From Massalongia carnosa (taxonomy: Eukaryota): a stretch of 64,000 nucleotides of DNA. The stretch covers positions 682,001 through 746,000 of the forward strand of contig OZ287086.1 in assembly GCA_965645245.1 (NCBI GenBank), in the 5' to 3' direction. Positions 12,630 to 57,878 of this stretch are shown here, one piece after another. The position numbers were made by a program, and so were the translations under genes. The notes under the pieces are model-generated. The model was not told the origin of the DNA and made no database searches. It saw only the letters and a list, made by a program, of their open reading frames with translations. Positions within the stretch are counted from its first letter, which is position 1. Each line of letters starts with the position of its first letter.

Positions 12630-13442
12630 AATTAGAAATGATTTATGCTGGAATATTTACGAGCTTTACAAAAACAAATTGTAAAATCGATATTTCGATT
12701 ACTAAAGGTTGTTACTAACACGGAGTAAAAACGGGGCAATATTGACGATAGATAGTTTGGTTATAAAGGGTTGATTTATTTGTAAAATAAAACCATATCT
12801 TAAAATAGTTTAGTGTCATAACCTTAGGTTGAATACACTTAATGAATAAATAAAAAAAAAACCTCGCTTAGAAGGGGGTGACCAGTAATAGGAAAAGATT
12901 GCTGCCTAGCAACTCTTCATCCTTAACATCACGGTCATACATACCTTTATTATTACATAGCCATATAGCCATAGTCATATACCATAGTCATATACCTATT
13001 TCAATAGTGGGTGTGGACGGTGCGGACGAAAATTCTCGCGTTTGTTCCATAGCCTCCGTGGATTCTACGGTTAGGGGGGTGCTCCCAATTATCGCTACCG
13101 AAGATGGCGCGGGCGAATCGGTTGGGGTGTGGCCCGGGGGCGTAGTCGGGGGGACCCATAGATGTTTCGGAGGGAGGTCTGGGGGTGGAGTTGATGGTAT
13201 CAATCGATTTGGTCTATGACACATCGGGTTGAACCTTCGATTGAGCATAGTGTTTTTTGTCTTTGCAATATCCCTTTTATCGCCACCAAATAATTTATTA
13301 TGACTTTCCCCGGACGTACTAGTCAGAATAGAATTTACACCTGTTTACTGGTCAAATGACTCTTTCTTTCCTATCCCTATTTATTTGACTATAACGCGTC
13401 AAATAAATCCTAATCGGGTTAAAATAGACCGCTCCTCGCTAA

Positions 13443-14240
13443 GGCTAAGAATGATAAAATAGAGTTGACATCTCTTTCGTGAAGTCTCTATCCCAGTTTT
13501 CGTTCATCTCACTAGTGCGTTTTACGGCCCAATACTATTGATGAATTCTACGATTGGGGTGAACGACGTCCCTTTCGCCCAGGTCAAACCCAGTTTACTT
13601 CTTAAGCATATATCAATAGCGAGTCTAGCCGTAGCCCATGCGCCGGCGAACCGACGGGGTCTCGTTACGAGCGAGATAGACATTCACTGCTCTATATACA
13701 CCGACATGCGCATACTGTCCTCTCGGGCTATGCAGAGGGTCTCCGTACGGTGGCCGCCATTGCATACCACGCCTCACGGGTTTTTTATGCCTACTTCGCG
13801 TTATTCATAAAGGTCTCCCGTTTATGAACCGACCATGTCTCGCAGGGATTTCGACCACTATGCTCCTGACCAGGCAGTATAGTATCGATTTTCCGTCCCT
13901 ACTATCCATACGGGTCGAGGACAACTCGGAGGGGTGCTCGTTTGAAATTCGTCTGTTAGCTCAGGGCCTAGACTGTTATCAATTAACGGGTTCCTCGTAT
14001 ATTGCCCTCTTCTTCTCCCAAGGGTGTCCTATTTGATGACTAGGTTGCCTCCACCATCCCCGGTACGACTCCGGTTTGGGCCGTAGTGCTCACGGTAGCC
14101 ATCAATCGGATGGTTTTTATAACCCAAATCCCTTGTATCGTGTAGGGTGTGACCCTACACTATGTGTCTATATGTTTTATTTCTTTCAGCCGGAGGGCTC
14201 CGTGTTGTAGACGAAGGAGACCCATGTGATAGACATAGCT
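13443..14240. repeat. ~800-bp non-coding dispersed repeat, copy 1
   Basis: Colinear with 32250-33047 from GGCTAAGAAT to GATAGACATAGCT; no recognisable protein domain. Confidence 0.85.
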
Positions 14241-17200
14241 TGGATTCGGAGGTAGCACTGCACAGTAGTTTTTGAGTCCGATCCAACAATCTTCCAACCT
14301 AACGAACAATCCATCCTTCTTCCCTTCTTCATCTTCGATCAACACGTATAAACCTAGCTCCGCTCTACTCCCTTCCATAAACAGAATGCCTACTACCTGC
14401 CGCCCTGCGTCCACCGCCGACGATAGCGGCCCCACTGGCCCCCTCACCCCCCTTGTTCCTGACTCTCAGCCGACCTCCGCAACAATGCAGGCCGGCCAGC
14501 CAGCGGAAGAAGGGCCCACACGCCCCGGTACCCCTGATGAGCTACTTGAACTTCGCGTACAACGCGACATTTTGGTACGAGAGGGGCGCAGGCCGAAATG
14601 AGAAAGCTTAGGAAGGAAATTGTCGACAGACAGGCCGCGTTGGAGGTGGAGGAGGCCCCTACGGGATTTCAGCATGGGGGATCCCAACAGACAAATCAGG
14701 CCATTCAGAGCGAAGGTACGGATGACCCAAGAATCCTCCCTCTGACAAGTGACTTTCCGGCCATAAACCAGCTGTATTTCAGGCAAATTTTGGAAAATAA
14801 GTTTGACCCCATCAATATCGCCAAGATGTGCAGTGATGTTACTCTGAGCAAGTCTACGAAGAAATCTATCAATATCAGCAAAGGTCTGGAGGTCATTACT
14901 GGCGAGGATGACGCATCGTTGAGCGACATCAAGGGTATCACCCACCTAATTCGTTGTCTTTTGGTATACTGGCAAGCGGTATTGCACTTTGCACAACCAA
15001 GTCTGTTCAAAGATCTAGCAAGGGCCTTCATGAAATACGAGGACCGGCTGATTTTGCCTCACAATACCTACACATGGGAGTCGTTGCTGCAAGTTCATAT
15101 GCTATTTCATAGAACGCTGTGGTATCAAGGAGTGGACGACCCCGTAAAATGGAGGCAAAGCTACCCAGACTTGGAAAACACATACCTGGTTAAACGCGAC
15201 AGGCCCCTCAACAACCTTCAAACCCGGACCGGATTTGGGGGATACACAACCAATTCAAACAGCATTACTCCAAGGCCCTACCCTTGCCATCGGTATAACA
15301 CAGGCAAGGACTGCCGAGACTGCAGATACCAACACGTCTGCAGCAACTGCGGGAGACAGCACCCAGCACTTAGTTGCAGGGGCAACAACCCCAACAATAG
15401 CAACCCAAGTAGCCAATCTCGTAACAATCCGAATTGGACACCGGTCAATAGGAAGGATTGACTAGCCGGCCCATATGACCATATCGCGGAAGGTTTTCCG
15501 TACAGACTGATGGACAAACTCGAGGCTCTTCAGCAAGGACCACTCATCCTCGCCGGCTGGAAGAAGCACCTAGAAACTCACCCCGATAACGTGTACAAGC
15601 AGGCTATTTTTGATATTATTCGGTATGGGGCCAAGATTGGGTATACCGGCCCAGAACAATTCATCCTCAGCCCCAATCTGCTATCAGCAAAAGAAGCTCC
15701 TGATATACTCACTAAAGATGTCGAGGAGCAGAGGGATAAGGGACGATTGACGCGAGTAGATATTCTTCCCTCCAAGTTCATATCATCCCCATTAGGTCTC
15801 GTACCCAAATCAAATGGTACATGGCGCCGTATCCATCATTTATCTCATCCTGAAGGATCATCGGTAAATGACTTCATCCCTCAGGAATGGGGGGCCTTGT
15901 AATACCCCACATTCGATGACGCTGTCGCCAAAATAAGAAAACAAGGAAAAATGTGCATATTAGTAAAAAGGGATTTCTCCGATGCCTTTCGCCATATACC
16001 CGTGGCTAAAAGCGACTGGTGGTTGCTGGGATTTCAATGGGATAATGTTTACTGGATGGAGCGCTTTCTACCTTTCGGCTTGCGCACCTCTCCTTTTCTA
16101 TTCGATTTGTTCGCAAAGGGGATAAATTGGATGTGTTTACAAAATCAACATGATGTGCTTCATTATCTAGATGATTTCTTGGCAGTTTGCCGCACTAATC
16201 CCGAAGCGGAAGCTTTCACTCGGTACTTCTTCGATCTTTGCAAAGACCTTAAAAGAAAAATAAAACTGGTCATGTGATCGATTTCTTAGGCATCGAATTG
16301 GATACTGTGCTCATGGAAGCACGGCTACCACCAGACAAACTGCAGAAAGCCAAAGACCTCGTCAAACAGGCCTTGCAAAAATCATCGATTAGAAGGGAGG
16401 AATTAGACTCCTTGGTGGGATTTTTGTCATTCGCAGCTAAAGTGGTAGTGCCAGGGAGAGCTTTCCTCCGACGTCTTTTTAACGCAAAAGCCATGTCTCG
16501 TGGGCGTCATATTCATATTAACGAGAATTTCAAAGCCGACCTGCAGTGGTGGCATCTTTTTTTACCTAAATGGAATGGCGTTCGCATGTTAGACCGTCCT
16601 CGCGAGACATTTCGTCTTTGGACGGACGCATCAGGGTACGGCATTGGGGCCTACATCCTAGTGGAGGATCATACCAGTTTTACCATGCCCGCTGAGCATG
16701 CACTTTCTGAACGTTTCAGGTCTCGGCTTAGGCCAACTCACATCAATGTCAAAGAAATGACAGCGATATTACACGCTTTGCGTAAATGGCTCCCCCTTTG
16801 TGCAGGGAGCCATGTGATTTTCCACTGTGACAACTTTGCTGTCACGTCAGGAATAAGGAAATCATCTATTCGTGGAAACGCTATGCGGCCCCTTCGGGCA
16901 ATCGCAATGCTGACCGCTATTCATGATATTCGGATTGAAATACGTTGGATCCCAACAAAGTCAAATGAGCTCGCTGACCTCCTATCACGGGGCAAACTGG
17001 AGAAAATCGGTAACAAATGGCCCAATTTACAGGAACCTCTACTCAAATCCTAGCACGCGACCCTCCCGAAAGCTGGTATAGCGAAATACCTCTATCCCGA
17101 CCAGCAGCTAGATACCTGTGGTGGGGCTTGGCAGTCAAAACCCGCAGTCTGTATGACACAGGGAGAAGAAGCTATGTAACACACTGCAGAATATCAATGA

Positions 17201-18230
17201 ACGCGACTCCATTTCCGGCAACCATACAGACCTTGTCATCTTGGATAGCGATGCTAGGAGAACACAAAATACAGCCCAAAACCATTAAGGCCTATCTAGC
17301 CGGAGTTCGGTCTAGCCAAATCGACACGGGCTTTGAGGATCTAGAAACGTTTCACCATCCCGTACTAAATAGAATCATTGCAGGCATAAAGCGAAAGAAT
17401 GGCGAAGCCGACAAGAAAGAGCGAATGCCCATTACGAAAAACATACTCCTTCGTTTAGTGAAACGATTGGACTTAGCCGACAACGCGCAGGCCACTCTAC
17501 ACGCAGCATACTGTCTGGCATTCGCAGGATTTCTTCGCGCAGGCAAATTTACGTACACTATCAGAGACCTAACAGACCCAAGCTTCGAATCATGGCATTT
17601 AACTAGGAAATCCGTCCACTTAGAGGTAGATAAGCAGTTCCTCTCCTTGCCGGCGTCCAAAACCGACCCCTTTCGTCGAGGCATTACGCTAACGATAGCC
17701 GCATCAGGGGACGAGGCCTGCGCTGTAAAATCCCTTCGTAATTTGATCACCCGGTTTCCACTACCTGCAACCTCCCCTTTATTCTATAAACAAAAGGCTT
17801 TCACACGCGAATATTTGACCACCGCGATGCGATCAGGCCTTAAGAGATTAGGCATAATAGGTAATTATTCAGGTCACTCTTTCCGAAGAGGTGCAGCGAC
17901 GTCGGCCAAGGAAGCCGGTCTTAGCGGGAACGACATTCAATTACTAGGCCGGTGGAAGTCAGACTCCTACAAGCTTTATATCCAAACGCATCAATCCCAC
18001 ATCTTAGCCACACGCCGTTTTCAACACCCTCCCTCAGCCTCCTAAACAGCATCGCCGCGCGAGCCGTTTCCATCTTGGGCTTGGGAGTATCCACCGCGAT
18101 CTGCACCAAGGCCCGAAAGGGGGCGCTAGGTAGAGGCGCCGGCGAGAGTGACGGCGCCAGCGAGGTGCAGATCGCTGTGTTTCCGCCAACCTTAGAAATA
18201 GAAGCAATACGAGGTCACATGAACTAGACA
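14241..18230 (+). mobile_element. DIRS/Ngaro-type tyrosine-recombinase retrotransposon, degenerate; boundaries approximate
   Basis: Gag-like ORF with Cys/His finger (14385-15461), RT (LPFGLRTSP, HYLDDF; 15510-16277), DIRS-type RNase H (WTDASG, HINVKE, CDN, ADLLSR; 16274-17053) and an overlapping YR ORF. Confidence 0.9.
17017..18045 (+). CDS. Tyrosine recombinase of the DIRS/Ngaro element
   Basis: FAGFLR, SKTD, GHSFRRGAAT and GRWKSDSYKLY carry the R-K-H-R-W-Y catalytic residues. Confidence 0.92.
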   Translation: MAQFTGTSTQILARDPPESWYSEIPLSRPAARYLWWGLAVKTRSLYDTGRRSYVTHCRISMNATPFPATIQTLSSWIAMLGEHKIQPKTIKAYLAGVRSSQIDTGFEDLETFHHPVLNRIIAGIKRKNGEADKKERMPITKNILLRLVKRLDLADNAQATLHAAYCLAFAGFLRAGKFTYTIRDLTDPSFESWHLTRKSVHLEVDKQFLSLPASKTDPFRRGITLTIAASGDEACAVKSLRNLITRFPLPATSPLFYKQKAFTREYLTTAMRSGLKRLGIIGNYSGHSFRRGAATSAKEAGLSGNDIQLLGRWKSDSYKLYIQTHQSHILATRRFQHPPSAS

Positions 18231-22438: not shown

Positions 22439-23776
22439 CAGTACTAGGTCAAAAGTTTCCGACAGCCCCACCATCAACTTTTTACCCCCCCCACTGCTTT
22501 GAATTATCAACTATCAAGTTGTTATTTTGATGTCTTGAAACTTCGTACGATGATTACATACATTATAGCAAGCACATTGGGCTGAGAAATATATTTGTAA
22601 TATTTCGTATACCATCCTTTTGACTGGATGCAAGCTTCAATCCTCCTTTCCATGCTGTCTACTAAACTCTTCAGCATTTCCTCATCTATGAAGGCCCATG
22701 CTTCTTCCAAAGCTTTCCAAAGTACCTCGCGGACCCTATCATCACCACCAGTCACCGAGTCGATGTCCGGATTGACCTGGTAGACGAGCTTTTTGAGCAC
22801 GTACCAAACGTGCTCGATGGGATTCAAATCAGGAGAATAAGGGGGCCAATCGATGACTGTTATGCCGTTTTCATCGAACCATTTCTTCACCTTTTTGGCA
22901 GTGTGAATGGGGGCATTATCCTGCATGAAAATGAGACCTGGTTCCCAAATTCCAAGCAGATTATCGTTCAATAATTCCAAATATGAATTCGCGGAGTACC
23001 CCATCTTCTTTGCCTCGAAATCACGGGCCAATTTGTAGATATCCGACCTTCCCCCCCCCAAAAAGCCCCCCATACCATGACCTTGACCTCTTTACCTTTG
23101 CCGTACGGTTGTATCATAGGTTTTTTCCATTTTTCGTCCGGAAATCTGAACACCCATTGACGCTGTTTGCCCGACCCCTTTTCCACCGAGCACTCGTCTG
23201 ACCATATTATTTTTGACCACTGCTCAAAAGTCCACTCACGCCGAAGCAAGCACCAGTCCAGTCTCTTCTTTGCCACCTCGGGCATCAATAAAGGCCGCTT
23301 TTTAGCCAGCCAGTTTGTTAGACCATAGTCTTTGAGCGTCCGATAGAGAGTGGATCGACTACATTGCACCCCAACCTCCGTACGCAGCTGCGCGTAGGTG
23401 ATGCGTGGATTGATTCGTGCAAGTTTGATGATACGTCTTCGGTCGCGGTCCGAGAATATTCCAGGCCGACCCGATCGCGATTTGGACTTTTCGTTGTTGC
23501 GTTCTGAGTGCTTTTGAAGAGTGTAAATGACGGTGGTTCGAGGCACATTTAATGTCTTTGCAATTTCGGCCGATGCATGCCCCAAAGCCTGGGCTCCAAT
23601 AATCATACCTCTTTGACATTGATTCAATTCGATATTACGAAGCTTATTACCAGAAATTGAAGTCAACGGAGTGCGTGGCATGGTGAAATGATGAGGTCAA
23701 AGTTGATGGGTTGGTAGGTTAAAACGCGAAATCACGAAAATCTCGGGTAGTGTCGGAAACTTTTGACACGGGACTG
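22439..23776 (-). mobile_element. Tc1/mariner (DD34E) DNA transposon with a frameshifted transposase (22522-23681)
   Basis: TA duplication at 22437-22438 and 23777-23778; TIRs CAGTACTAGGTCAAAAGTTTCCGACA and TGTCGGAAACTTTTGACACGGGACTG; WSDE, QDNA and SPDLNPIEH motifs; frameshift in a G/C run near 23055. Confidence 0.95.
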
Positions 23777-23839: not shown

Positions 23840-26800
23840 ATGGCCGGTAACACGCCAGCAGTCTCTACAGGCGCGAAGGATTTTGGCACGATTTCTGGCA
23901 ACCAAGGCGCTGTGATCGGTGACGTCTCAGGCTATGCGAACGTGATTGGTTTGCGTCCTGTTCACATTGATATTGATCTTATGCTAAATCCTGATTAGGT
24001 TCTCAGACAAACAATATTGTTCAATGTCCAGGCAAGTCGCCATTCGCAATGATATAGCGTCCTGTGAGCCGAGGCTGATAGCATTTTGCGTTTGTAGAAA
24101 GACCCGATACCCCACCAAGCTCATCATCTGCTGTTCCTTTCCGCCGCGACCATGATTTCGTCGATCGCGGAACGCTACTTGATCAGATCCACGAAAAGTG
24201 CTCGGCGCCAGCATCAAGGGTAGCGCTTGTCGGCCTAGGCGGCGTTGGGTAAGCCAAAGGGCCTCAGGCTAGTTCTAATAGCTTACTTTCGCAAAGAAAG
24301 TCGCAGCTTGCCATCGAGTACTGCTATAGAATCAGAGAGCAGTTGCCGACGACGTGGGTGTTCTGGATACATGCTAGTAATGCAGCCCGTATCGAGCAAG
24401 GTTATCGGGATGTTGCAGAGCAAGTCAAGATTCCTGGCAGGGAGGATCCAAAGGCGGACATATTCCGGCTAGTTGACAAGTGGTTACGCGACGAGAAGAA
24501 CGGAAAGTGGGCTCTAGTCCTCGATAATGCCGACGAAGCTACTGTGCTTTTCGAAACTCATGCTACAGGCCAGAAGGCGCAGGATGGAGGCATTAGAAGC
24601 GGGCTCACGCAATCACTGTTAGCATATCTACCTCAGAGTCGAAACGGCTCGATTCTCATCACCTCCCGGACTAAAAGCGTGGCATTGCGGCTAGCAGAAG
24701 AAAGCGACATAATACCGGTTGAGCCGATGGACGATACACATGCGCTAGCGCTCCTTGAAAAGAAGCTGGGAGAACAGATGAACAGAGATGATACTGCTGA
24801 GCTAGCAGCAGCACTCGAATTCATGCCGCTTGCCATCATTCAAGCGGCCGCATACATTCGACAAAGAGTACCAAGATATTCTGTTCGACAGTACATAAAA
24901 GAGTTCTATAAAAACGATAAAAGAAAGACCAGTCTGTTGAATCACGAAGCGGGACATCTTCGCAGGGACCTGGAGGCTAAAAATTCAATCATTATAACCT
25001 GGCAAATATCGTTTGATCATATTCATCAGATCAAGCCTTCGGCAGCTAATCTGCTGTCGCTTATGAGCTTTTTCGATCGACAGGGAATTCCTGAGGCTTT
25101 ACTCAAGACACAAAACGAGGCAGGAAATGAAAATACGGGAGAAAATGCTGGAAATGACGAAGATGATGACCACGAAGACGATAGCGATAAGGATACCGTA
25201 TCCGATTCCAGCGTCGACGAGTTTGAAGACGATATACTTGTCTTGAGAAACTTCTCGTTCATCACCATCAGCATGGATGAAACCACCTTTGAGATGCACG
25301 GGCTAGTGCAGCTAGCGATCAGAAAGTGGCTAGAAGCATCCAATCAGCTCGAAAGATGGAAGCAGCAGTACATCAAGAATCTCAGTACAGTATTTCCGAC
25401 GGGAAATTACGAGAATTGGACAAAGTGTCAAGCGCTTTTTCCTCACGCAAAGTCGGCAGTAGCGCAGGAGCCAGCTGTCGAAAGCTCATTACAAGATTGG
25501 GCCTTGATACTATATCACGCTGCATGGTATGCGTGGGCGAAAGGGAGTTACGCTGAAGCAGCGACAATGGCCCTAAAAGCAACAAGAACCAGGCAAAAAG
25601 TGCTTGGTCCAGAGGATGAAGAGACATTGAATAGTATGGCTATGCTAGCATCGGCATACACGGGACAAGGACGATGGACGAAGGCCGAAGAGCTGCAGGT
25701 GCAAGTGATGGAGACGAGTGCGAGGGTGCTAGGGGCGGAGCATCCTTCCACGCTGACTAGCATGGCCAATCTTGCATTGACGCATTGGAATCAAGGACGA
25801 TGGACGGAGGCCGAAGAGCTGCAGGTGCAAGTGATGGAGGCGAGTGCGAGGGTGCTAGGGGCGGAGCATCCTTCCACGCTGACTTGCATGGCCAATCTTG
25901 CGTTAACGTATTGGAATCAAGGACGATGGACGGAGGCCGAAGAGCTGCAGGTGCAAGTGATGGAGCCGAGTGCGAGGGTGCTAGGGGCGGAGCATCCTTC
26001 CACGCTGATTAGCATGGCCAATCTTGCGTCGACGTACAGGAATCAAGGACGATGGACAGAGGCCGAAGAGCTGGAGGTGCAAGTGATGGAGACGAGAAAG
26101 AGGGTGCTAGGGGCGGAGCATCCAGACACGCTGAATAGCATGGCCAATCTTACGTTGACGTACAGGAATCAAGGACGATGGACGGAGGCCGTAGAGCTGC
26201 AGGTGCAAGTGATGGAGATGAGTGCGAGGGTGCTAGGGGCGGAGCATCCTTCCACGCTGACTAGCATGGCCAATCTTGCGTCGACGTACAGGAATCAAGG
26301 ACGATGGACAGAGGCCGAAGAGCTGGAGGTGCAAGTGATGGAGACGAGAAAGAGGGTGCTAGGGGCGGAGCATCCAGACACGCTGACTAGCATGGCCAAT
26401 CTTGCGTTGACGTATTCGAATCAAGGACGATGGACGGAGGCCGAAAAGCTGCAGGTGCAAGTGATGGAGACGAGTGTGAGGGTGCTAGGGGCGGAGCATC
26501 CTTCCACGCTGATTAGCATGAACAATCTTGCGTCGACGTATTCGAATCAAGGACGATGGACGGAGGTCGAAGAGCTGCAGGTGCAAGTGATGGAGACGAG
26601 TGCGAGGGTGCTAGGGGCGGAGCATCCTTCCACGCAGACTAGCATGAACAATCTTGCGTTGACGCATTGGAATCAAGGACGATGGACAGAGGCCGAAGAG
26701 CTGCAGGTGCAAGTGATGACGACGAGAAAGAGGGTGCTAGGGGCGGAGCATCCAGACACGCTAACTATCATGGCCAATCTTGCGTCGACGTATTCGAATC

Positions 26801-28458
26801 AAGGACGATGGACGGAGGCCGAAGAGCTGCAGGTGCAAGTGATGGAGACGAGTGCGAGGGTGCTAGGGGCGGAGCATCCTTCCACGCTGACTAGCATAGC
26901 CAATCTTGCGTCGACGTACAGGAATCAAGGACGATGGACGGAGGCCGAAAAGCTGCAGGTGCAAGTGATGGAGACGAGTGCGAGGGTGCTAGGGGCGGAG
27001 CATCCTTCCACGCTGACTAGCATGGCCAATCTTGCGTCGACGTACAGGAATCAAGGACGATGGACGGAGGCCGAAGAGCTGGAGGTGCAAGAGGTGGAGA
27101 CGAGTGCGAGGGTGCTAGGGGCGGAGCATCCTTCCACGCTGACTAGCATGGCCAATCTTGCGTCGACGTACACGAATCAAGGACGATGGACGGAGGCCGT
27201 AGAGCTGCAGGTGCAAGTGATGGAGATGAGTGCGAGGGTGCTAGGGGCGGAGCATCCTTCCACGCTGATTAGCATGGCCAATCTTGCGTCGACGTACAGG
27301 AATCAAGGACGATGGACGGAGGCCGAAGAGCTGCAGGTGCAAGTGATGGAGACGAGTGCGAGGGTGCTAGGGGCGGAGCATCCTTCCACGCTGACTAGCA
27401 TGGCCAATCTTGCGTCGACGTACAGGAATCAAGGACGATGGACAGAGGCCGAAGAGCTGGAGGTGCAAGTGATGGAGACGAGAAAGAGGGTGCTAGGGGC
27501 GGAGCATCCAGACACGCTGGCTAGCATGGCCAATCTTGCGTTGACGTATTGGAATCAAGGACGATGGACGGAGGCCGAAAAGCTGCAGGTGCAAGTGATG
27601 GAGACGAGTGTGAGGGTGCTAGGGGCGGAGCATCCTTCCACGCTGATTAGCATGAACAATCTTGCGTCGACGTATTCGAATCAAGGACGATGGACGGAGG
27701 CCGAAGAGCTGCAGGTGCAAGTGATGGAGACGAGTGCGAGGGTGCTAGGGGCGGAGCATCCTTCCACGCAGACTAGCATGAACAATCTTGCGTCGACGTA
27801 CAGGAATCAAGGACGATGGACAGAGGCCGAAGAGCTGGAGGTGCAAGTGATGGAGACGAGAAAGAGGGTGCTAGGGGCGAAGCATCCAGACACGCTGACT
27901 AGCATGGCCAATCTTGCGTTGACGTATTGGAATCAAGGACGATGGACGGAGGCCGAAGAGCTGCAGGTGCAAGTGATGGAGACGAGTGTGAGGGTGCTAG
28001 GGGCGGAGCATCATTTCACGCTGATTAGCATGAACAATCTTGCGTCGACGTACACGAATCAAGGACGATGGACGGAGGCCGAAGAACTGCAGGTGCAAGT
28101 GATGGAGACGAGTGCGAGGGTGCTAGGGGCGGAGCATCCTTCCACGCAGACTAGCATGAACAATCTTGCGTCGACGTACAGGAATCAAGGACGATGGACG
28201 GAGGCCGAAGAGCTGCAGGTGCAAGTGATGACGACGAGAAAGAGGGTGCTAGGGGCGGAGCATCCAGACACGCTGACTAGCATGAGCAACCTTGCATTCA
28301 CGTGGAAGTTTCAAGGCCGCAATGATGAGGCTCTCTCACTGCTAAAGGAATGTTTTCAGCTACGAAGACACAAATTGGGTCCTCAACATCCTGATACAGA
28401 GTCTTTGCTTGAGCTTCTCAATGGTTGGCAGATGGAGAGTTTATCATTAGAGTCTTAA
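23840..28458 (+). CDS. Fungal NLR: short N-terminal amyloid-like motif, NB-ARC domain, TPR array; predicted join(23840..23948,23999..24031,24098..24248,24297..28458)
   Basis: Splicing restores ERPDTPP...VPFRRDHDFVDR...P-loop GLGGVGKSQLA in frame with the 1371-aa ORF; Walker B LVLDNAD; LPQSRNGSILITSR; MPLAI; MHGLVQ; 42-aa TPRs. Intron 2 is GC-AG. Confidence 0.92.
25640..28290 (+). repeat. Array of 21 near-identical 126-bp (42-aa) TPR units
   Basis: GGACGATGG (GRW) recurs every 126 bp from 25669 to 28189. Confidence 0.95.
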
Positions 28459-28466: not shown

Positions 28467-28499
<33 letters not shown>

Positions 28500-31400
28500 A
28501 TTCTTATTCCGATGTGGTACCGGCCGAAGGCCGACCCATGCGGGCGAGTCTATCTAGTTTTATAGTACATGGAAAACCTTTTGAGGAAGAAAAACCATGC
28601 AATCCTGTGTCCGGCCGAGGACCCTCCAGGTCCCAGCCGTGTGCTCCATGAAAAAATTTTTGACCTAAGACAAGTATGAAAAATGAAACAAAGCATGCCT
28701 ACTGATAGCAGTATAGACGCTATGCTGTCAGCGAAAATTGTGACAAAAAACCTGTCTTCATTAGCCACATTGTGACTAATTTCATTGCTTTAGATGACTT
28801 AGTGATTAATCGATAGTTGTTTGTGCCTATCGTATTTAGCAGAGTTTTTCTGTTGTCGTTGAGTTTGCAAAACATGATCACATGTTTTGCAGTCTGTTTG
28901 CGCCAGCCGCATGAGCATTTCGGGGACGAGACGTCTGGGACTCGGAGTCTATGTAGGAAGGTAGCTAGGCCTATCTTTTCTGAGCGTATCTGAATGGCTA
29001 GCGCGCTCTCCGCTTTGGCTAGAGTTTCGTGCAATTTGATGCGTTTTTGGAGAGTGTACCTGATTGTGCCGGGGTGGGAACGGGTGTGCGTTCCTGATAT
29101 GATCTCCACGAGGCCTGCCATGCAACTGTTTGTCGTTTTTTTATTTGAGCAGTTTTTTTGTTATGAGCGGCGCGTGCCTCCCCTATTTCTCGGGCGAGAT
29201 TCGGGGGGGATTCGGCCCATGGTGGATTTGGTGTCGGTGTTGGAGGGTTATATGCCTCCGATGTGATTCTCTTGGCCCAGGAGTATTTCAGCGTTCATGG
29301 AGTGATGACTGGGGCCCTCTTGCGTCCTGCCCGACCTCGAAGTTATTGGCTATTTTGTTGCATGCATTTGTTATGAAACTCTTTTGGCCATTTCGACACA
29401 GGCGTTGTCTGGTCTGGGCCTGTAGTTGATCTAAATGTATGTCAATTGAGGCTATAAATGTCTCTGCTTCTAGTGCAGCCATAGGCCTTGCTTTGAAGGC
29501 TCAGGCTAAGTTTCTTTGACATTTGTTTTGTATGACAGCCAGTTTGTTTGAGATGATGTTTGATTTTTGAATTTCTTTTGGTATGTGCCAAATGGTAGAG
29601 CCGTACGTCATGGCCGGCCGGACTACGGCGGTGTAAACTTGGCGTGCCTTTAGAAGAGTGGCGCCCCATGTTGAGGTGGATATTTTTGTCAATGCCCTGG
29701 ATTGTTTTGTCATTTATTCCTGGATATTCCTTGTGTGAACACCCTATTTCAATTTTGAATCGATTTGAAGTCTAGAATTCTGATTTCTGTCTTTGGTTTT
29801 ATTTTGTTATTTCCTATTTGAATAACAGTGAACATGTTGAATTTCTTCGGATTTCTTGACAGATGTATCAATTCGTATTTCTTCGGAGCAAAGACTGAAC
29901 CATGTCGACTTGCCCATTTTTCACATTTTTTGTGAATTACCTCTAGCGTCTTGCAATTTTCTTCGGTGCTTTTTCCGTATGCTAGCATATTGATGTCAAA
30001 TACGAAGGCTAGAGCACTCGTGTTGCTGCCTGGTCTTTCACATATGTCTAGTAGGTCTGCATTGTAGAACAGATAAAGAATAGGAGAAATAGGGGAGCCT
30101 TGTGGGATTCCGGTTTTTACATCGAATATGCCCGTGACTCGGCTGTGAATCGCCAGGGTAGTGCTTCTTTTATTCAGAAAACTGTTCCTCCAGTCAGTAA
30201 TCCACATTGGGATTTTCCTTTTGCGAATATTGTGAATCAGTCTTCGATTTGTCACTGTGTCATAGGCTCCTGCTACGTATATGCTCAATAATGTTGCTAC
30301 TTTGTCTGTGCCTTAGCCCAACACTCTTTGAATTTGTTTAGTCAACAATTCTATTGCAGATTCGGTTGATCTTCCTCGTCTGGCGCCGATCTAGGTGTCG
30401 GGCAGGAGTCGGTAGGTTTCCGCTAGATGGTTTATTTTTTGTAATATGATAGATTCCAATACTTTTCCAAGCGTTTTTAGGAGGGCTATGGGTCGATAGG
30501 CGTTCGGGGCCGAATAGTCATCCTTGCCTCTTTTCTTGAGCGTGATTGTGTTGGCTGTTTTAAATGCACGAGGATGATATGCTTGATCTACACATGCTTG
30601 AAAGAGTAGGGTCAGTAATTCGATTAGCTTTTCCGAGCATGCCTTTACAATTCTGTTGGCAATTCTGTTCGGACCCGAGGCCGTATCGGGCTTGAGTCGG
30701 CGTATGGCTTCTATCACCACTAGTTTGGTTATGATCATTGGACATTGTGGCGGGCTGGGGTAAAATAAACCCTCTATGTCGCTGAGGTCGGCCGGAGGAA
30801 CGGGTGTATAAATTTTCTGTTTTAGCATGTCCGATTTCTCCTCGAACGTCTCTGCTACATAGTCGTCTCGAACGAGATTGGGCATTTTGGGAATTTCTCT
30901 TGTCTGGTCACTTTTGTCTTTCACCCATTTGGCTAGTCGCATGAGACCAGTCGGCGATTCAGTGGCTTTTTCTATTTCCTTGCGGAACGACAGTCTTTTA
31001 GCCTTTTGAATGATTTTTTGATTTCTGTAATTGGATTTTGGGTATGTTATCCAATCAGAAATGTCTCTGAAATTTGACCAGATACGTCTGAGCCTACGAG
31101 TTTCTTTCGTGATCACACTGCATTCATTATTCCAAAAGGGTTTGGCGTACTTACTGGGTCTAGCCCAAGGTACAGAGGTTTCTATCACTTCTTGAAGTAT
31201 ATTCTGAATTGACACGGTGTAAGCATCGATTTCGGCGGGGTATCGGGGGGTCTTCGGGAGGAGCGCCCTCTTTTCCGCTTCTCTCAATTTTCTGATATTC
31301 GTCAGTTTCCAGGCCCTGCGTTCTCTGATTGTTTGAACCTTACTGTTCAGCGCAATTCGGGTGGAGGTCGGAATGTGATCGGACGACTGATTGAGTTCCG

Positions 31401-32250
31401 GTCTTAACATGCAATGTTCAAGTCTATCCGTTAATTCTTCTGACACGAATACAAGATCGATTGTGCTAGACGATTGTCAAGCCTCCCATATAATGGTGCC
31501 CTTTGGAAGTGTTAGTGATATATTTGCCTCTTCAATTATGTTCGGTAATTGTTCGGACTCCGCATGTTAAGTAGGCCTCGACGAATGATTCCACAATGGA
31601 TGATGTAGGTTGAAGCCGCCCAGTAAAATGTGTTGTCACTGCAATTAATTGGCGTTTCACTGTTGCTAGAGTAGACGGACATTCTATAGAAGAGTAGGAA
31701 ATGGGAGAGGGATTATAAACATTGTGGATATGGATCACCTTTGATGTGTTTCCAGTTTTCATTCGAACTTTTAAGGTGCATATGTCGGCCGACGGATACT
31801 CTGCTTCCCAGCTATCAGGGTCAATAGTATCATTTATATAGAAACACACTCTGGTATCTCTATTTGGGCGAAATAATAAATGAAACCCACTTGGATGTGA
31901 GCTTAAGTTGGTAGGAATAGATGGATTGCGCCAGGGTTCCTGAATTGCGATAATGTCATAGTCTTGAGTGTTCGGATCGGCTAAGAGGGGTAAAATTGTA
32001 CTCATTCTGTCATTTCTGATATTGTACTACAATATCGAGAGAGATTTCGTGTCCATTATAGGACGTCTATTGATTCGGCCTGGGAGATCGAGGGGTCGTT
32101 GGTGGTGCTGTGTGCTCTGATTATCGCCGGGGCAGTAGATACAGCTCGGGGTCTGAGTGGAGGTCTACCTACAACTGGTTTTGTATAGGCCTTTGTCATA
32201 TTTTCTGGATTCATGATGCCCGTGTCAGCCCAGGATATTCCCGTTCGTGG
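28466..32250 (-). mobile_element. Degenerate Tad-like LINE (end of ORF1, ORF2 APE-RT, (CAT)n tail)
   Basis: Fragmented ORFs homologous to 51521-54895 (DIIAIQEPW, GIPQGSPISP, QIRSEKIGL, CSCG...KHV); (ATG)n tract at 28468-28497. Confidence 0.92.
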
Positions 32251-33047
32251 GCTAAGAATTATAAATAAAGTTAACATATCCTTCGTGAAGTCTCTATCCC
32301 AGTTTTCGTTCATCTCACTGGTGCGTTTTACGGCCCAAGACTATTGATAAATTCTACGATTGGGGTAAACGACGTCCCTTTCGCCCAGGTTAAACCCAGT
32401 TTAATCCTTAAGCATATATCAAGGGAGAGTCTAGCCGTAGCCCATGCGCTGGCGTACCGACGGGGTCTCGTTACGAGCGAGATAGACATTCCCTGCTCTG
32501 TATACACCGACATGCGCATACTATCCTCTCGGGCTTTGCAGACGGTCTCCGTACGGTGGCCGCCATTGCATACTACTCCTCATAGGTTTTTTACGCCCAC
32601 TTCGCGTTACTCACAAAGGTCTCCCGTTTATGAACCGACTATATCTCTCAAGGATTTCGACCACTATGCTCCTGACCAGGCAGTATATTATCGATTTTCC
32701 GTCCCTAATAACCAAAACGAGTCGAGGACAACTCGAAGGGGCGCACGTTTGAAATTCGTCTATTAGCTCGGGGCCTAGACTGTTATCAATTAACGGGTTC
32801 CTCGTATATTGCCCTCTTCTTGTCCCAAGGGTTTCCTATTTAATGACTAGGTTGCCTCCACCATCCCCGGTACGACTCCGGTTCGGGCCGTATTACTCAC
32901 GGTAGCCATCAATTGGATGGTTTTCATAACCCAAATCCCTTGTATCGTTTAGGGTGTGACCCTATACTATTTGTCTATATGTTTTATTTCTTTCAGCAGG
33001 AGGGCTCCGTGTTGTAGACGAAGGAGACCCGTGTGATAGACATAGCT
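32250..33047. repeat. ~800-bp non-coding dispersed repeat, copy 2
   Basis: Colinear with 13443-14240. Confidence 0.85.
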
Positions 33048-33394
33048 GACCCGCGTCGTACGTCCTTAGCTTTCAGCCGATGACTGCAGGGAAGGACTTA
33101 AACCTTTAAGAGTATGACCGAACGTTGTCAACGAAGTCTATGAAAATCTTTTAACGAGATCTTCGAGGACAATATTAACGAAGTTCCGCTGAACTCTTTT
33201 CAGTCGTTTTGTGATCTATCGAGGTCTACCCGTGTCAAATCCGCACCATGCCCTTGTCAAATACATTTTTCTCAGCTGATGAATGCTAGAAAGGACTTGA
33301 ACCTCTAAAAATATGTATTCCGATATGAACGGGATGTAGATCTGTCTTAATGAGCATCCGCAGAAACCCCTTCACAGGGACGTGTTATGGATTT

Positions 33395-33560
33395 GTGACT
33401 ATGTTTGTTGAGACTGTGTGTTTTGTAACTGTATGTTTTGTGACTGTATATTTTATAAATGTGTGTTTTGTGACTGTGTGTTTGTGACTGTATGCTTTGT
33501 GGTTGTATGCTTTGCAAAACGTGTGATTGATGACTATGTGTTTTGTGACTCTGTGTTTTC
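33395..33560. repeat. Degenerate 15-bp minisatellite (TGTGTTTTGTGACTG-like)
   Basis: About ten TG-rich units with 15-bp periodicity. Confidence 0.8.
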
Positions 33561-34094
33561 CTCGATTTCATTTAACAGGCCGGGCCTATTTAATGGGATA
33601 TTGTTATTCTGCTCCGAGATTGAGTTTTCTTGAGGTAACAGCATTCGCCCCGGTGCCTTTACGCGTTCTGTTGATCCCAGCTGATGACTGAATGGGGAAA
33701 CTTAAACTCTTAAGAGCTAGAACGCGTATCGACTCTTCCCGGGTAGGGGATGATGCGGCTCCTTTGGTCCGTATCTTCTTCCAGCTGATGACTACATAAA
33801 GGGACTTGAACCCTTAGAAGCATGGTGCAGGGACGCGCGCATTCGACCCTCCGGCGGTTGGCCTTCGTATCCTCTTCCGTACGTACGTCTGCGACGCGTA
33901 TGAACGCGTTAAATTAGCATTGTTTTGATTCGAAGAGATATGAGTAAATCTATATATTTGAGGGTCGACCCACGATGAGGCCTTTGGCGTCTCCGTGGTG
34001 AGGACCGATGGTGTAGAAGGAGGAGGACTGATCGTGTAAAAGGAGGAGGATCGATCCATGCTTCAACGCGCAATTGATATTTATCTACTTATAA

Positions 34095-45299: not shown

Positions 45300-46145
45300 A
45301 AATCTAACTCCCATAATGCTCTGTACAAACTCACCAGACATCAAGCATCAAGAGTCACGGATTACGCATTGAAGCATCTTGGTGATGAGGCAAAAGAGGC
45401 TGGAAAGCATACAGCTGTCACATCTTCTCGTGAAGTGCTCATGATTTAAGCATTCAACGGAGCCTCTCATATAGTCAATCTTGCAGAACGTACCTGCACG
45501 TGTTTGGAATTTCAGGACAAGAAGTTACCTTGTCGTCATGCAATTCTAGGTCAGGAGTATAATCTGGAGTCAGAGGTGCATCTTGGTGATATATATAGGA
45601 TGGAAACGTATCGTGGCACGTACGGGACGTTTATGCCTCCTATTTGCATAGAAGATCTTCATTGTTCCTCCGATTTTCCAGCTCCTCTGATTCGTCGAAA
45701 ATCTGGTCGTAACATAAAGAAGAGGCGGGAGAAAAAGAAGAAAAATCTTTGCATGAAACGCTATTCTTTCTGCAGAAGTACGGATCACAATCGACGCAGA
45801 TGTGATCAGGAAATTCCGCCTCAAGGGAGATGCCGAGACAATGATAACAACGAGGATTTGGATAACAGCTCCACAGCGAATAGCACCATAGATAATGACA
45901 CGGAGAGTAGTTTCGCTGGCTTTTCTGATTATCATGTCAATCTAGAAAGCCCTGGGCATTCTGATTCTTCTAGTTTTTCGGGTGAGGATACGACGATTTT
46001 TGCTTCCAATGTAAATGATCAAGCGGAGGAGTTTAGGCATTGGAATATGGATATGAATTGGAATGGAAGGGGTGGAGGTAGGAGTGGTAATGGGAATGAT
46101 AAAGGGAATGAGAATGGGAATAAGAATGGAGGATTAGAAATATAA
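45300..46145 (+). pseudogene. MULE/Mutator transposase C-terminal remnant
   Basis: SWIM finger VNLAERTCTCLEFQDKKLPCRHA, then YRGTY...P, GRNIKKRR and a degenerate knuckle FCRSTDHNRRRC. Confidence 0.75.
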
Positions 46146-47511: not shown

Positions 47512-49783
47512 TAGGGCTCCGATTTGAAAAGAACTGAAAGTTTGCCTAACCCGATCGGGCGAAACTTTCACTGTCATCTTCATGAGTGAAACTTTCATGG
47601 ATTATTTACAGGGGGGGAGGGGGTGGGTAGGGAGGTGCGGAAAGGGGGAAAAGCGGGGAAAAGTCAGCAAATAGTAAACTTAAAAAGTACGTAATTTTGC
47701 CGGTCATCGTCATACAATTAATTGTATGTATTTCTACTTATTCAACCCATAATCTCGCTGAATCACCTCCTATTTCTTGACTGGCCGGACGTTTCGATGA
47801 CGTCAAGGACTCCTGAATGACAATTTCATCCTGCAGTAATCTGTCTTCCATTTCACATAGATCGCTTTCGTCAATGTCGATGCCAGCAAATTGTAACTTC
47901 TTTTTGATATCCCCAGGTCGGTTGAGGGTACGCTCATTCATGTAGATAAACATGAGTTTATCTACGCTTATCGAGCTCATGGAATTGCGCGTTTTATTCA
48001 TGATCAGATTTATTACCGACCAGCTTCTTTCGGCCAATACCGAACTACCAGGAAGTTTCACCACCTTTCTGGCTAAGCTGCTAAGGGTTGATGCAAAATT
48101 TCTGCTGAATGTCCAAAACAGCTCCGGATCCATTTGATACGTCTAGGATTCGGAGCTTGTATGAAAGCCATCTTCTTGATCGCGAAATGCGAGCTATTTC
48201 TTCATGGCAGTAGCTGCCTCTGCACTAGTCAGATGTTGATTGAAACATCTATGCATTAGCGGAGCAAATGTCGGCTCCGTAGATACGCTAATCACCTTTA
48301 TAGCATGATTCTGAGGAAGCAAAAGAGCTGCTACCACATGAAGCTCAGTAACCTGACTGAGATATCTGTCTTCCCCAAATCAACTGAGCAATGTGATTCA
48401 AATCCGTCTCGTCGTCTTCATTGGCAGCAATTGATTATAGATGAGATCAAATCTTATTCAAGGTGTTGGCTATGGTATAAAGTTTATGCTCTTCGGCCTC
48501 GCACATGTATTGAAACTGATGTATGGGATCCATCACTTTCTTGACAATGAACAGCTTTTTCCAAAAAGAAAAGTCATTGACGAAGCATCTCAAAGAATTC
48601 TTTCTTCCCTGATCAATGCCGGGATTCTTTTGTTGAAAATAATCCAATAAGGCCTGCTGATTTCTGAGGACTGAGTTTAATAAGCCTATCGTCGTTCCCT
48701 ATCTGGTAAGAACGTTAAGAATCAATGAACGGCGTTGTTGATAGGCCTAGAAGTTTGATCATCAGAAAGGTTAGTAATCAGAAAGTTTTATAATTCAAGA
48801 ATTTGGCATACCTTCATTTGATAACCCCTTAAAATAGACATTTCCTTATTCGACCCCCGAAAGCTAGTTACTATCAAATGTGCCTTTTCTAGAACCTCCG
48901 AAAAGAATAGAAATTTCAGTATGTCTCCCATTAGCAATTGCAGACCATAACTGTCGCAGGGAACGAAAAACACGTGTTTCATCTCTGGAAATTTTGCTAT
49001 CTCCATCCACATAGCCTTCATGGTTGCACACGTATCAGTGGCAATGCAATTGATTCTCCAAAACTGATCGTTGGTTGCTTCCTTACAACCTTTTATTACC
49101 CATTGAGCTTGAACGACAGTACTCATCTTCTCGGCAACACCAGCATCAGCTTTCAATTGAAATCCTCCTCCATTGGAGGTGGCGGACGGGGGAACATGAC
49201 AACAGAGATTTATAACACGTTCTTTTCGAATGTTGGCTGTCTCGTCAGTGAAGAAGTTCAGGTAATAAGAAGCATTCAATTCCTTGATAACTTTCGATTT
49301 AACGATGCTATAGATTTCGTCCAACAGCTTGCCAGCAACAAGGCTAGAATGAGGAGGTTTATAGCCTGAATTAAGTTCCTGATGATGAGCAATAACGTAC
49401 GGATTTTCGAAGTGGTTAAATGGCAGATTTGTCATATAGACAGACATCGCAGCTGCTCGATGTGCTGATGCAATTTGGGCTTGATTAAGGGGACGAATCA
49501 ACGTAATGATGGGCAGTTGAATAGAGGTATTACTGAGAATACCTTTCTGTTTTCTAGCTTTCTCTTTTTGATAGGCATCACATTGATTTAGATGCTGTTG
49601 TCCCCTAGCAGCATTTCTGGTTGATTGATGACCGCAATGAATGCATTGATGTTGAGAATTTTTTAAGCCCTCAGTAATGATATCCTTGAAATTCTTATCT
49701 ACCAGGTGATTTTTCTGACGTCCATCTCGGTGAGACATAATAGATAATAATAGAAAGATTCTTGATTATAAGTGCAATTACCT
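47512..49783 (-). mobile_element. hAT transposon body with a degenerate transposase (47738-49738)
   Basis: BED finger CIHC...HLNQC, DETAN, ATDTCATM, PCDSY, TR*GT and dimerisation motif SSVLAERSWS; TIR TAGGGCTCCGA at 47512 next to GCGGTGGG. Confidence 0.9.
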
Positions 49784-54895: not shown

Positions 54896-56515
54896 TGAGA
54901 GGAGAATTGGTTTTTTCTTCTACTTATTTTCTTTTCTTCTCTTTTATTCTTGCACTTACTCAGGCGCATAACGGGTATAGCGGGTTTCCCAAACCGTAGA
55001 GATCAACCCTGGGAAAGAGCGAGTCCTCTACAAACCTGGTACGCAGGAGCAGTTTTTTACCCGTTCGGGTTTTCTGCCTTTATATAGCCTATGTAGTATC
55101 TCCCGCATGGGCCAGCTTCAGCTGGTGTCATATCGGCGTAAGAAAAATCAATCAATCAATCAATCATGACAGCAAGAGCGACAATATGAGCGTTCATACT
55201 GACATGGGTGACTGGGATGGATTCAGTGATCGTTCTTTTGTTTTTAGGTCTCGCAGATTCTCAGCTCAAAACGATGAAGATATTGCGATCGAGAGTGACA
55301 AGAGTTTTACATCTCATCGCGACAAAAGTATTACACTCGAGAGTGAGATGGATTCCTCATCTCGATCTCAATCGTCGTCAATTGTAACAGACTCATCAGA
55401 AGATACTAAGGAAGAGCAGAAAAACTATGCTTGTTGGGCTATTGGATGGCTAGATATGGACGAGGCACAGTTACAACAATTTCAAAGGTTTGATATGGAT
55501 CAGACGTTTGCTGGAACACTACAGTAACATAGAAATTACAAACGTCGCTTTCCAGAGGCGGCCGAAGAAGAAGCTCGCAAAAAACGAATACTTTATGCTA
55601 ACCAGGCACGTACTCACCATATGATTAATTCATGGCTAATAATTGAAAGCAGGGTCGAAGATTTCTGACAGAGCGACAGTATCAACTTATCGTTCCCCAT
55701 TTTGAGCCCATAGCTCCAGCTCCATCGTCGCATTCTTCAGTTCTTAGAAAGTTTTTCACCCGCCCATTATAGACGTATCCTCAAAGACGATGTCCTCTTC
55801 CTCTACGCATTCCTTTAGGAGAGCCAACACCACTTTCGGAAGGGGAGAGAACACCAGTAGGCTGTGGTTTTGATGACTTTCCGTACGAGAAAGACGATGC
55901 ATTACCGGAAGAGAGAGTGGAAGTCGAGAATACATTAGCGGATGAGCGACAAGAAGCTGAGGATATACTGGCGGAGGAGCAAAATTGGAGCATGCTAGAG
56001 AAAGGTAAAGAACGTGACCGGGCACTGATCTCACCTCGTAAATCTAGATCTGGACGGATATTGAAACGTACTGTGAGAGCGCAAGAAGCTTTACACACAA
56101 AGCATGCCAACTTAGCAAAGGCAGCTTTAGAACGCTCTAGAGAAGTATCATTGACTGACATAATAAACAAGTCACCTCCTCGAAAACGACAAAGGCGAAG
56201 GACAAAGTCGAGTCAATAGTTGAGTCTAGAGATTATCCTTACAGAGAGAAAGGATAAGCAATCGTGTTTTCTGTCATGAAGTGACAGGGCATCTGCCGGC
56301 TAGCTACGTTCCATGTACCACTTCTTCGGAGGCGATTTTTTTGGTGAAGGAATAACATATCGAAACATGACAGTCTGGGGATGGAAAATTAGAACATGAC
56401 TTTATATTGTGATGTTTTCCATATATTTTTGTATAGGTATCTACTCGCTTTTCCTCGTGCTTGCCATTTAATCGTGCAGTCGTAATATATACTTCAAGAT
56501 CGATTTCGAAATCTA

Positions 56516-57878
56516 CACTGTAGCTGTGTAAAAGTCTTCGGCACACCCCACCAAAACTAAAATTCCCTTTTACAGGAGATTTGTTCCACCTATTCCCTAC
56601 CCCCCAAACAACCGTTTGAAACCTCCAAAATTGCATTGATAATCGATTGATATGTGCTCTATTTACTACCCGAATTTGGTGGTGCTGATACTTTGTATGC
56701 CACCCCTCCGCAGCAATAAATGCTGCCACCTTGCGGGGCATGCTTGCAATCAGTCCATCTATTACCTCCTCACGAATGTTCCCCCATGCCTCCTGCAGAA
56801 TGTTAAACAGCTTGGATTCTGCCTCGTCGCCCTTGCCCTCTAGCGAATTGATGTCGGGATAAACTTTGTAGGCATCTTTCTTGAGAAGGGCCCAAAGCTT
56901 TTCGATGGGATTTAAGTCGGGGCTGTAGGGTGGCAAGTCCATTACCTCTATCCCCCATTCCTTAAACCACGCCTTTGTTTTATTCGCTCCATGAATAAGG
57001 GCATTATCCTGCATGAAAACAAGACCGGGCGTCTATATTCCTAGCAAGTTGGACTCCAAAACCTGTATGTAGGACTTTGCTGAGTAACCTTGCTTTTTAG
57101 ACTCCTAATCCCGCTCCAAAAGATGAAGATTCGACCTTCCCGATCCCCAAAGTGCCTCCCATATCATAATACTAAAGGCCTTGCCTTTGGGACCTTCCTG
57201 AAGCTTATCACGATCCCATTTCTGATCAGGAGTTCCAAAAGACCAGTCACGGCCTTTGCCCGAACCCTTTTCACAGAAGACTCATCTGATTAGATTACAG
57301 TTTTCCACTGTTCCACCGTCCAGTCCTCGTGTTTTCGTGCCCAATTCAGTCGGAGATTTGCCAGAGCTGGGGTCAATTTAGGCCGCCTCAAGGCGATCCA
57401 ATGAGCTATCCCATTGTTCTTGAGCACCTTGTTGAACGTCTGCCTGCAGATTTTCAACCCCAAGGCTGTTTTGACCTGATTCCAACTTGTTTTTGGGTTG
57501 ATTCGAACATACCGCAGCACGGATCTGACCGCTCGAGGGGTAACAACAGGGGGCCGGTCGCATCGGGATCTATTTTCTCCAGACGGAACTGTTTGTTCTC
57601 TCTGCAAAAATCTCTGAATGGTGGTGCGGGGGACGTTCAATTGATGATGAATTTCAGTGGGTATTAAACCCGCCCGGGCGAGGCCTGATCGGGCGAGGCC
57701 TGATATTTGACCTTTTGTAAACGTAGATAACTCCCTTCGAGGGGTCTTATTAGCAGAGATAGGGGTCAATGGGCTTCGTTTCGGCATGGTGATGGTGGGT
57801 TGAAAAGGATGAGTTTGGGGGAGACGCGATTTTTCTCGAAAATTACGCGAAATAACGAACACTTAATCATACCCACTG
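56516..57878 (-). mobile_element. Degenerate Tc1/mariner transposon
   Basis: TA flanks at 56514-56515 and 57879-57880; transposase fragments (MPKRSPL, QDNA, SPDLNPIE, GWHTKY); imperfect TIRs. The host sequence is uninterrupted at 45059-45298. Confidence 0.9.

Follow-up and report, generated by a model that had tools for sequence, protein, structure and literature searches.

What is the noncoding sequence that stands directly before two unrelated, 5′-truncated LINEs in one genome? An initial annotation of the 64,000-nucleotide stretch of Massalongia carnosa DNA analyzed here (the window) had described an ∼800-bp module at 13443-14240 and 32250-33047. The proposal was that a discrete structured RNA had been captured by LINE machinery. 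The two copies in the window share 92.6% identity over 799 bp. The host genome (52 Mb in 25 contigs, with TTAGGG telomeres) contains numerous Tad-like and RNase-H-clade LINEs. The elements involved are listed below; here and in the text, a slash within a sequence marks the junction.

13445..14240, minus strand: copy 1, the 3′ part of the module with its 5′ part lost; terminal G at 13445
32252..34055, minus strand: copy 2, the module at full length; terminal G at 32252
13007..13444, minus strand: 5′-truncated RNase-H-clade LINE piece (5′ UTR and start of ORF1), joined to copy 1 at G/CCTTAG
28469..32251, minus strand: 5′-truncated Tad-like LINE with a (CAT)n tail, joined to copy 2 at G/CCCACG
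14241..18045, plus strand: DIRS/Ngaro-like retroelement that cuts copy 1; ORFs at 14550-18045

Extent and copy number of the module

As the initial annotation had recognized, each window copy is followed by a 5′-truncated LINE on the same (minus) strand; that of copy 1 belongs to the RNase-H clade, and that of copy 2 is Tad-like. The two end points that it reported as shared fared differently. The 3′ end point is common to both copies. The 5′ one is accidental: copy 1 appears to end at 14240 because the DIRS/Ngaro-like element cuts the module there, and of 31 copies examined, 30 have ∼960 bp more of the module 5′ of the 798-bp repeat, one of them on the far side of an inserted LINE. At full length the module is a noncoding sequence of ∼1756 nt, of which the 798-bp repeat is only the 3′ part, and the earlier size of ∼800 bp becomes ∼1.76 kb. 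The module had also been drawn as running to ATTCTTAGCC, but the terminal CC is the LINE's and the module stops at the G (13445 and 32252). No Pfam domain was found in the 163-aa frame within copy 2, in agreement with the reported lack of a domain-bearing ORF. The strand described as structured folds somewhat better than its shuffled versions (z = −2.35, 20 shuffles).

Two copies had been considered weak statistics. The genome holds 103 candidates, and all 40 of those scored are full length (95%-100%). The last 21 nt of the module have 76 matches in the genome, whereas the reversed control has none. Loci were fetched for 74 anchors, and 69 copies with a 3′ end were analyzed; five copies that end internally at unrelated sequence, probably through later insertions, were left out. 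Ten further copies were fetched afterwards as a held-out set, which gives 79 copies with a 3′ end in total.

Several other features surround these copies. The retroelement that cuts copy 1 is broken. Between 14550 and 18045 it has matches to reverse transcriptase and RNase H, weak integrase/tyrosine-recombinase matches and a zinc-finger ORF, and its domain order suggests the family name used here. The LINE piece at 13007..13444 (minus strand) is interrupted further on. The tail of the LINE joined to copy 2 stops ∼10 bp beyond the stop codon of a 1401-aa, NLR-like ORF (window 24253-28458, plus strand) with ∼22 TPR repeats in a 126-bp tandem array. Transposon remnants (Tc1/mariner, SWIM or MULE-like, and DUF659 or hAT-like) lie at window 22522-23696, 45450-46145, 48788-49765 and 56304-57862, and the window contains no tRNA genes. 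An rDNA spacer origin of the module was rejected, since no similarity was found to 20 kb at the rDNA end of contig C3 or to the group I matches of the genome. Group I introns (loci L148-L150 and L145-L147) comprise one in the rDNA on C3 and three on C25, which is probably the mitochondrion. The left telomere of C3 has a variant repeat mixed in, and several nontelomeric contig ends (among L032-L070) look bacterial by eye, possibly as assembly carry-over.

Junctions, insertion and regeneration of the module end

The LINE adjacency of most copies, on which the capture proposal hung, is evident throughout the genome: 77 of the 79 copies run straight into a same-strand, 5′-truncated LINE of one of two clades. 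Of the other two, one is joined to a SINE-like element and one is unclassified (L308). No free-standing module was recognized among the 79 copies (about 100 candidates exist). Within the original 69, a sense LINE ORF begins at most 350 nt downstream in 66 by tblastn (35 Tad-like, 31 RNase-H clade), and two more begin with short LINE pieces recognized by nucleotide match. Nine of the 10 held-out copies are LINE-fused and one is unclassified; a pyrimidine is at +1 in eight. The SINE-like partner (L081:2800-3490) is a noncoding element of ∼690 nt that contains 59-bp repeats and ends in a LINE tail of the RNase-H clade; its family is present in L091 and L133 too. Clustering of the partners into LINE families failed because of nested insertions, so the claim is limited to two clades and several types of tail. 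With partners from two clades and 58 distinct junction classes among 69 copies, the module is not a UTR or LTR segment of one longer element.

The module ends in UUCUUAG. All 69 copies stop at one base, and this base is G in 68 of them and in 78 of 79 overall. Comparison with reference LINE copies, available for 48 of the 58 junction classes, reveals that the bases 3′ of the terminal G are LINE-derived. Among the 58 junctions, C is found at +1 in 43, at +2 in 47 and at +3 in 30; position +4 is G in 29. On the lost side of the LINE, A is at −1 in 33 of 48 junctions. These biases have binomial p values from 1e-6 to 1e-20. A pyrimidine is at −3 in 35 of the 48. The LINE sites thus resemble (Y)(A)A/CCCG, in which U can replace C. 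Among the non-C bases U is favored (31 of 54, p = 2e-5), as G-U wobble pairing predicts. Upstream microhomology is zero at 45 of 48 junctions, and the crossover falls at the identical module base even where the LINE bases are AA, AT or GG. At one junction (L092), the chimera has C where the reference LINE has A. Nine junction classes recur, which indicates that whole chimeras are also copied uncut or duplicated.

Four junctions (L099, L101, L122 and window copy 1) lie in or near a LINE 5′ UTR, and at such sites the module could stand in for the promoter of a nearly complete LINE. The junction site is the same in L099 and window copy 1, whose LINEs belong to different subfamilies.

Target-site duplications (TSDs) had been reported as absent. 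None was found for window copy 2, but genome-wide they enclose the whole composite in 24 of the 54 testable copies, which are those with a 5′ end. The search gave 27 candidates; 24 (11-16 bp) come after a LINE tail (poly-A or repeats of CAT, TATC or AATC) and bracket the array, the module and the LINE as one unit, and three were dropped as chance. This arrangement rules out that LINEs inserted at a fixed position in a longer repeat. Together, the junctions and TSDs support the earlier proposal in its main point, that a discrete structured RNA was repeatedly captured at the 5′ ends of truncated, unrelated LINEs and inserted by LINE machinery.

Some copies carry sequence inherited from an earlier insertion site. 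Eleven have 60-583 bp of one 5′ flank in common that is found nowhere else in the genome. They have 11 different junctions with LINEs of both clades, and six have a TSD outside the extension. In a second case, L087 lies inside a LINE, bounded by a 16-bp TSD of its own, and 450 bp of its flank recur in L093b, whose LINE partner is different (junction bases CCCC in L087 vs UUCG in L093b). The two are sisters in the module tree. No TSD was detected for L093b, and gene conversion could also account for this pair. In a third case, the target of L075 is duplicated on both sides, and seven copies carry its target flank and 5′ junction with other partners. The L075 junction is CUGG, whereas 7 of 7 relatives carrying its flank have C at +2. 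Inheritance of parental 5′ flanks with different LINE partners implies that the end is regenerated from chimeric templates. Chimeras thus re-seed new chimeras with the same end and appear to be the source themselves, which would explain why a source gene was not found. In the module tree, which is weakly supported, LINE-clade labels are clustered (11 changes vs 22 when shuffled). Simple template switching onto an abundant host RNA (the U6-L1 type), the precedent invoked earlier, does not by itself account for a source gene not found, an exact end regenerated by re-seeding and sequence-specific cutting of the LINE.

The 5′ kilobase of the module, listed here for copy 2, has a repetitive organization.

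34000..34055, minus strand: 23-bp tandem array at the module 5′ end, ∼2 units in copy 2
About 33803, 33699, 33293 and 33094, minus strand: four dispersed repeats with a B-box/T-loop-like hairpin, within 33094..33813
About 33392-33558, minus strand: 15-bp tandem tract

Elsewhere in the genome the array has about 1.5 to 26 units. Nine copies have a TSD that abuts the array. An extra G stands between them in five (four independent), two are ambiguous and two lack it. If the extra G is read as a copied cap, the capped transcript starts within the array, and the array is probably its start. The region 33094..33813 is a probable internal promoter region. The pattern of B-box repeats had no matches in viral sequences. 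The 23-mer is not a telomere repeat, since the telomeres are TTAGGG and it occurs at 0 of 40 contig ends. A telomerase RNA or telomeric transcript was likewise rejected because the template motif is absent from both strands.

A structured core common to fungal genomes and RNA viruses

Searches of Rfam with the module and its homologs gave only chance-level matches and no ribozyme. Among 11 loci from a metagenome scan, four are collinear, fungal-type homologs and seven are chance. Homolog L153 ends in UUUG/UCCC before a sense LINE ORF2 (tblastn 2e-15), and L152 ends in UUUG/CCCC. L151 lacks the end and adjoins an intron-containing dehydrogenase gene. Within L158:1-900, ∼500 nt of the 5′ domain are tandemly duplicated. 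Most of the module is also present in one sequencing run labeled lichen metagenome, and contigs from another run hold further diverged pieces of the module.

A 20-nt core pattern was found in 30 viral contigs. The first viral group is one related set (L203-L232) with the motif in an intergenic region of ∼470 nt before downstream ORFs. It has an RdRP_2-like ORF, checked in L219, whose match (E = 8e-5) is below the curated cut-off. A second, more distant group (L241, L262 and L270) has the same motif order before an AUG. In both groups, a long, highly conserved structured intergenic RNA that is not in Rfam lies directly before the downstream ORF. This RNA may be a ribozyme or an IRES.

13601..13855, minus strand: conserved structured core also present in viral intergenic regions; the viral covariance model matches 13670-13855
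13829-13841 and 13701-13711, minus strand: helix of the core formed by GACAUG and CAUGUC, copy 1
13601-13611, minus strand: covarying helix H8 and UAAG, copy 1
14119..14130, minus strand: candidate guide UUUGGGUUA, complementary to the junction and directly 5′ of a conserved AAACCA
32926-32937, minus strand: copy 2 equivalent of the candidate guide

A covariance model trained solely on 18 of the 27 distinct viral sequences of the first group matches the window at 13670-13855 (E = 5.9e-11), although part of this match follows from the search pattern itself. The ∼130 nt upstream, in which inner helices are kept by changed pairs, match independently of the pattern. The model also matches soil homologs L158, L152 and L151, and window copy 2 weakly (E = 0.009). 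It matches nothing in the remaining 39 sources, among them chance loci, group I loci and the three contigs of the second viral group, or in L153, which lacks the modeled part. A virus-related RNA, one of the origins suggested in the initial annotation, has gained support from these matches.

Four helices recur across the 36 sequences compared, a set with 13 distinct helix types from which window copy 1 is absent because the anchor search passed over it. All 13 types keep pairs 4-8 of helix H8, and many of the changes there are compensatory, whereas helix Y is uninformative on its own because it is nearly invariant. A viral scan for the H8 end gave one chance match only. Prokaryote scans gave 40 and 6 pattern matches. 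None of the 40 is collinear by blastn, and none of those given to the covariance model (10 of the 40 and all 6) is collinear. A compact core of the viral type was not found in the host genome.

The candidate guide UUUGGGUUA could pair both with the module's own UAG/CCCG and with UAA/CCCR in LINEs. Scored by raw pairing with the 48 targets, it comes first among about 1750 positions in two of three windows. By enrichment it ranks third, after two ACACGGGU repeats outside the conserved core. The dominance of G at +4, where the guide predicts A or G, and the frequency of C at −3 (16 of 48) count against it. A G-rich run recurs next to AAACCA in the homologs; L152 has A's at this position, which we read as G-to-A mutation. 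In the second viral group, an upstream loop UUUGA faces G/UCAAA, with a paired change at the next position between L241 and L262, and the distance from the G to the last helix equals that of the fungal ends. In the first viral group, GUAC faces G/UAC in most, not all, members; the G is at a different distance from the last helix, and L206 has no G.

These features invite comparison with group I introns. The terminal G is preceded by a P9.0-like pairing in the module, as in that class (G in 78 of 79 copies). Each base pair between UAAG and CUUA is present in 65-68 of 68 copies; a shifted register fits the homologs equally well. A first model of P7 fitted 62 near-identical copies and failed in the homologs. 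For P7 with a G-binding G-C pair and a P3/P7 pseudoknot, only a 3-bp P7-like candidate of near-invariant bases was found, and no J8/7. A P4-P6 domain was not found, as only 13-16 nt lie between the P4-like helix and the P3-like 3′ strand. The Rfam Intron_gpI model had no match in module or homologs at E up to 5-10, and its six genome matches lie elsewhere. Because P6 and J8/7 have no room, Rfam gives no match and a consistent P7 was not found, the module is not classified as a group I intron. A group II intron was also rejected, with no convincing D5 carrying an AGC triad, an end in AG or UG, and no Rfam match above chance. For a hammerhead retrozyme or Penelope element, one antisense CUGAUGA...GAAA was seen, with stem I absent by eye and no Rfam match.

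Possible mechanisms and comparison with known systems

The fixed G end, the target bias, the TSD-bounded composites, the re-seeding and a conserved fold also present in viruses are observed. Our tentative explanation, quite possible though short of probable, is that the module is a nonautonomous RNA parasite of LINEs with its own promoter, whose large structured 3′ domain would act as a group-I-like ribozyme. To the corresponding route we give slightly less than even credence: this ribozyme would cut at the terminal G and graft the module onto LINE RNA, and LINE reverse transcriptase would insert the product.

From the junctions and pairings, we infer three steps that precede insertion. A capped RNA would be made from a chimeric genomic copy, with transcription starting in the 23-bp array or in the upstream flank. 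The guide would then pair across the module's own UAG/CCCG junction, and a cut after the terminal G would free its 3′-OH. The same guide would next pair with YAA/YYYR in LINE RNAs, where the terminal G would attack in a manner like the first step of group I reverse splicing and join the module to the 3′ part of the LINE. The last step is evident from the anatomy: LINE reverse transcriptase inserts the chimera by target-primed reverse transcription, as the LINE tail and the TSD around the composite show. The partners would be LINEs because only joins to RNAs with LINE 3′ ends get inserted.

We consider it rather unlikely that the role of the structured domain is limited to making or directing the cut at the terminal G, by self-cleavage or with a recruited nuclease, and that proteins do the joining. 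LINE reverse transcriptase could jump end to end, or a host tRNA ligase could act, as has reportedly been proposed for U6-L1 chimeras. Such a division of labor would explain the fixed, regenerated end, the missing microhomology and the re-seeding without a full group I core, and it fits the position of the viral domain just upstream of the downstream ORF. However, it needs a separate reason for the A/YYYG bias of the LINE sites, unless the guide directs cutting of LINE RNA in trans.

A scheme without catalysis seems to us quite improbable. The domain would bind LINE reverse transcriptase or, in an IRES-like manner in viruses, ribosomes, and the chimeras would arise by template switching: a stalled cDNA end (the complement of CCCG) anneals to the CCCG after UAG, and copying restarts. 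The CCCG bias and the tolerated transition-type mismatches fit this scheme, and the C-for-A change in L092 is what annealing to an RNA ending in C would give. The viral domain directly before the AUG of the downstream ORF agrees with an IRES-like role, and template switching is the published model for MINE chimeras (PMC2104539). But the crossover base is invariant even with AA, AT or GG in the LINE, the daughters lack the parental junction (L093b against L087, and 7 of 7 relatives against L075), and A at −1 is left unexplained. Finally, a DNA-level or spliceosomal origin (fixed-site LINE insertion, recombination or use of a 3′ splice site) is largely refuted and very improbable: the module end does resemble a pyrimidine tract with YAG, and recombination could yield single flank swaps such as L093b, but the TSDs after LINE tails match the site upstream of the array rather than a common remainder, the points where the 5′ extensions stop vary and lack GT, the presumed branch A is altered in several copies and the homologs end in UUG.

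The grafting route has wider implications. It is possible, though we lean to the doubtful side, that a new class of large ribozymes is common to RNA viruses and fungal genomes and has become mobile through catalytic grafting onto LINE RNA. If so, the viral ribozyme may cut out the message of the downstream gene, and the Magnaporthe WEIRD RNA would be another member. The proposal also gives the 5′ RNA of fungal MINE-type chimeras a testable identity and its missing source gene a testable explanation. A literature search that covered few subscription papers found MINE but no description of the module RNA. The results point to a large conserved RNA fold, absent from Rfam, as a link between a nuclear retro-parasite and the intergenic regions of RNA viruses. 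Should this fold prove catalytic, it would be a natural ribozyme that joins RNAs under the direction of a guide, outside rDNA, which would be categorically new, and the chimeras would be a genomic record of the route from reverse splicing through reverse transcription to integration. According to PMC3679873, full experimental evidence for that route was missing. Even without catalysis, this is a distinct parasitism of LINEs, acting from the 5′ side and across LINE clades.

Among known elements, several share parts of this organization. SINEs are noncoding, LINE-dependent and carry B-box-like motifs, as does the module. The module differs in that it lacks a 3′ tail of its own and borrows a new LINE 3′ end at each event, and its extra 5′ G suggests a capped transcript. 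In U6-L1 chimeras, a noncoding RNA with a fixed 3′ end is reportedly joined to a truncated LINE without microhomology, and we know of no sequence specificity at the L1 joining sites. There the 5′ partner is a host snRNA with its own gene, whereas here the gene was not found and copies re-seed.

The lariat-capping ribozyme GIR1 also has a group-I-derived fold with a remodeled core, and its cut after a terminal G releases downstream RNA (PMC2219692). A similar release would suit the viral position before a downstream ORF. The RNA described here is much larger (about 470 nt in viruses and 700-1100 nt in fungi) and has no Rfam match, and here the upstream product is what spreads. Group I introns likewise have a terminal G and a pairing just before it. 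They also have a guide that pairs with the bases after the G, for which the module has a candidate, and hydrolysis at their 3′ splice site followed by the first step of reverse splicing resembles the route proposed here (PMC3679873). The helix order of the module resembles IGS-P2-P2.1-P3-P4-P3′-P8-UAAG-P9. In contrast to these introns, the module lacks a 5′ exon, a U-G P1, a consistent P7, P6, J8/7 and an Rfam match, and it is not in rDNA, where that review places all known nuclear group I introns.

The closest counterpart is MINE of Magnaporthe, in which a 1.1-kb noncoding RNA, WEIRD, is fused to one LINE family (MGL) in 33 chimeras (PMC2104539). WEIRD is likened to the module by layout and description, not by sequence. 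In both systems, a full-length noncoding 5′ part precedes a 5′-truncated LINE in the same orientation (PMC2104539, PMC3978060), a TSD surrounds the composite, one partner is a SINE, and no solo copy was found. The MINE junction consensus is GCC with variants GTC and GCT, junctions recur, and microhomology is not reported in the available portion of that paper (PMC2104539). Its authors assign the junction G to the LINE and call WEIRD a housekeeping RNA rather than a transposable element (PMC2104539). Here, the module is 1.76 kb, there are at least 79 copies and two LINE clades rather than one LINE family, the G is the module's and the chimeras re-seed. The module thus extends MINE-type composites to a new lineage, and it has a conserved RNA core that had not been recognized before.
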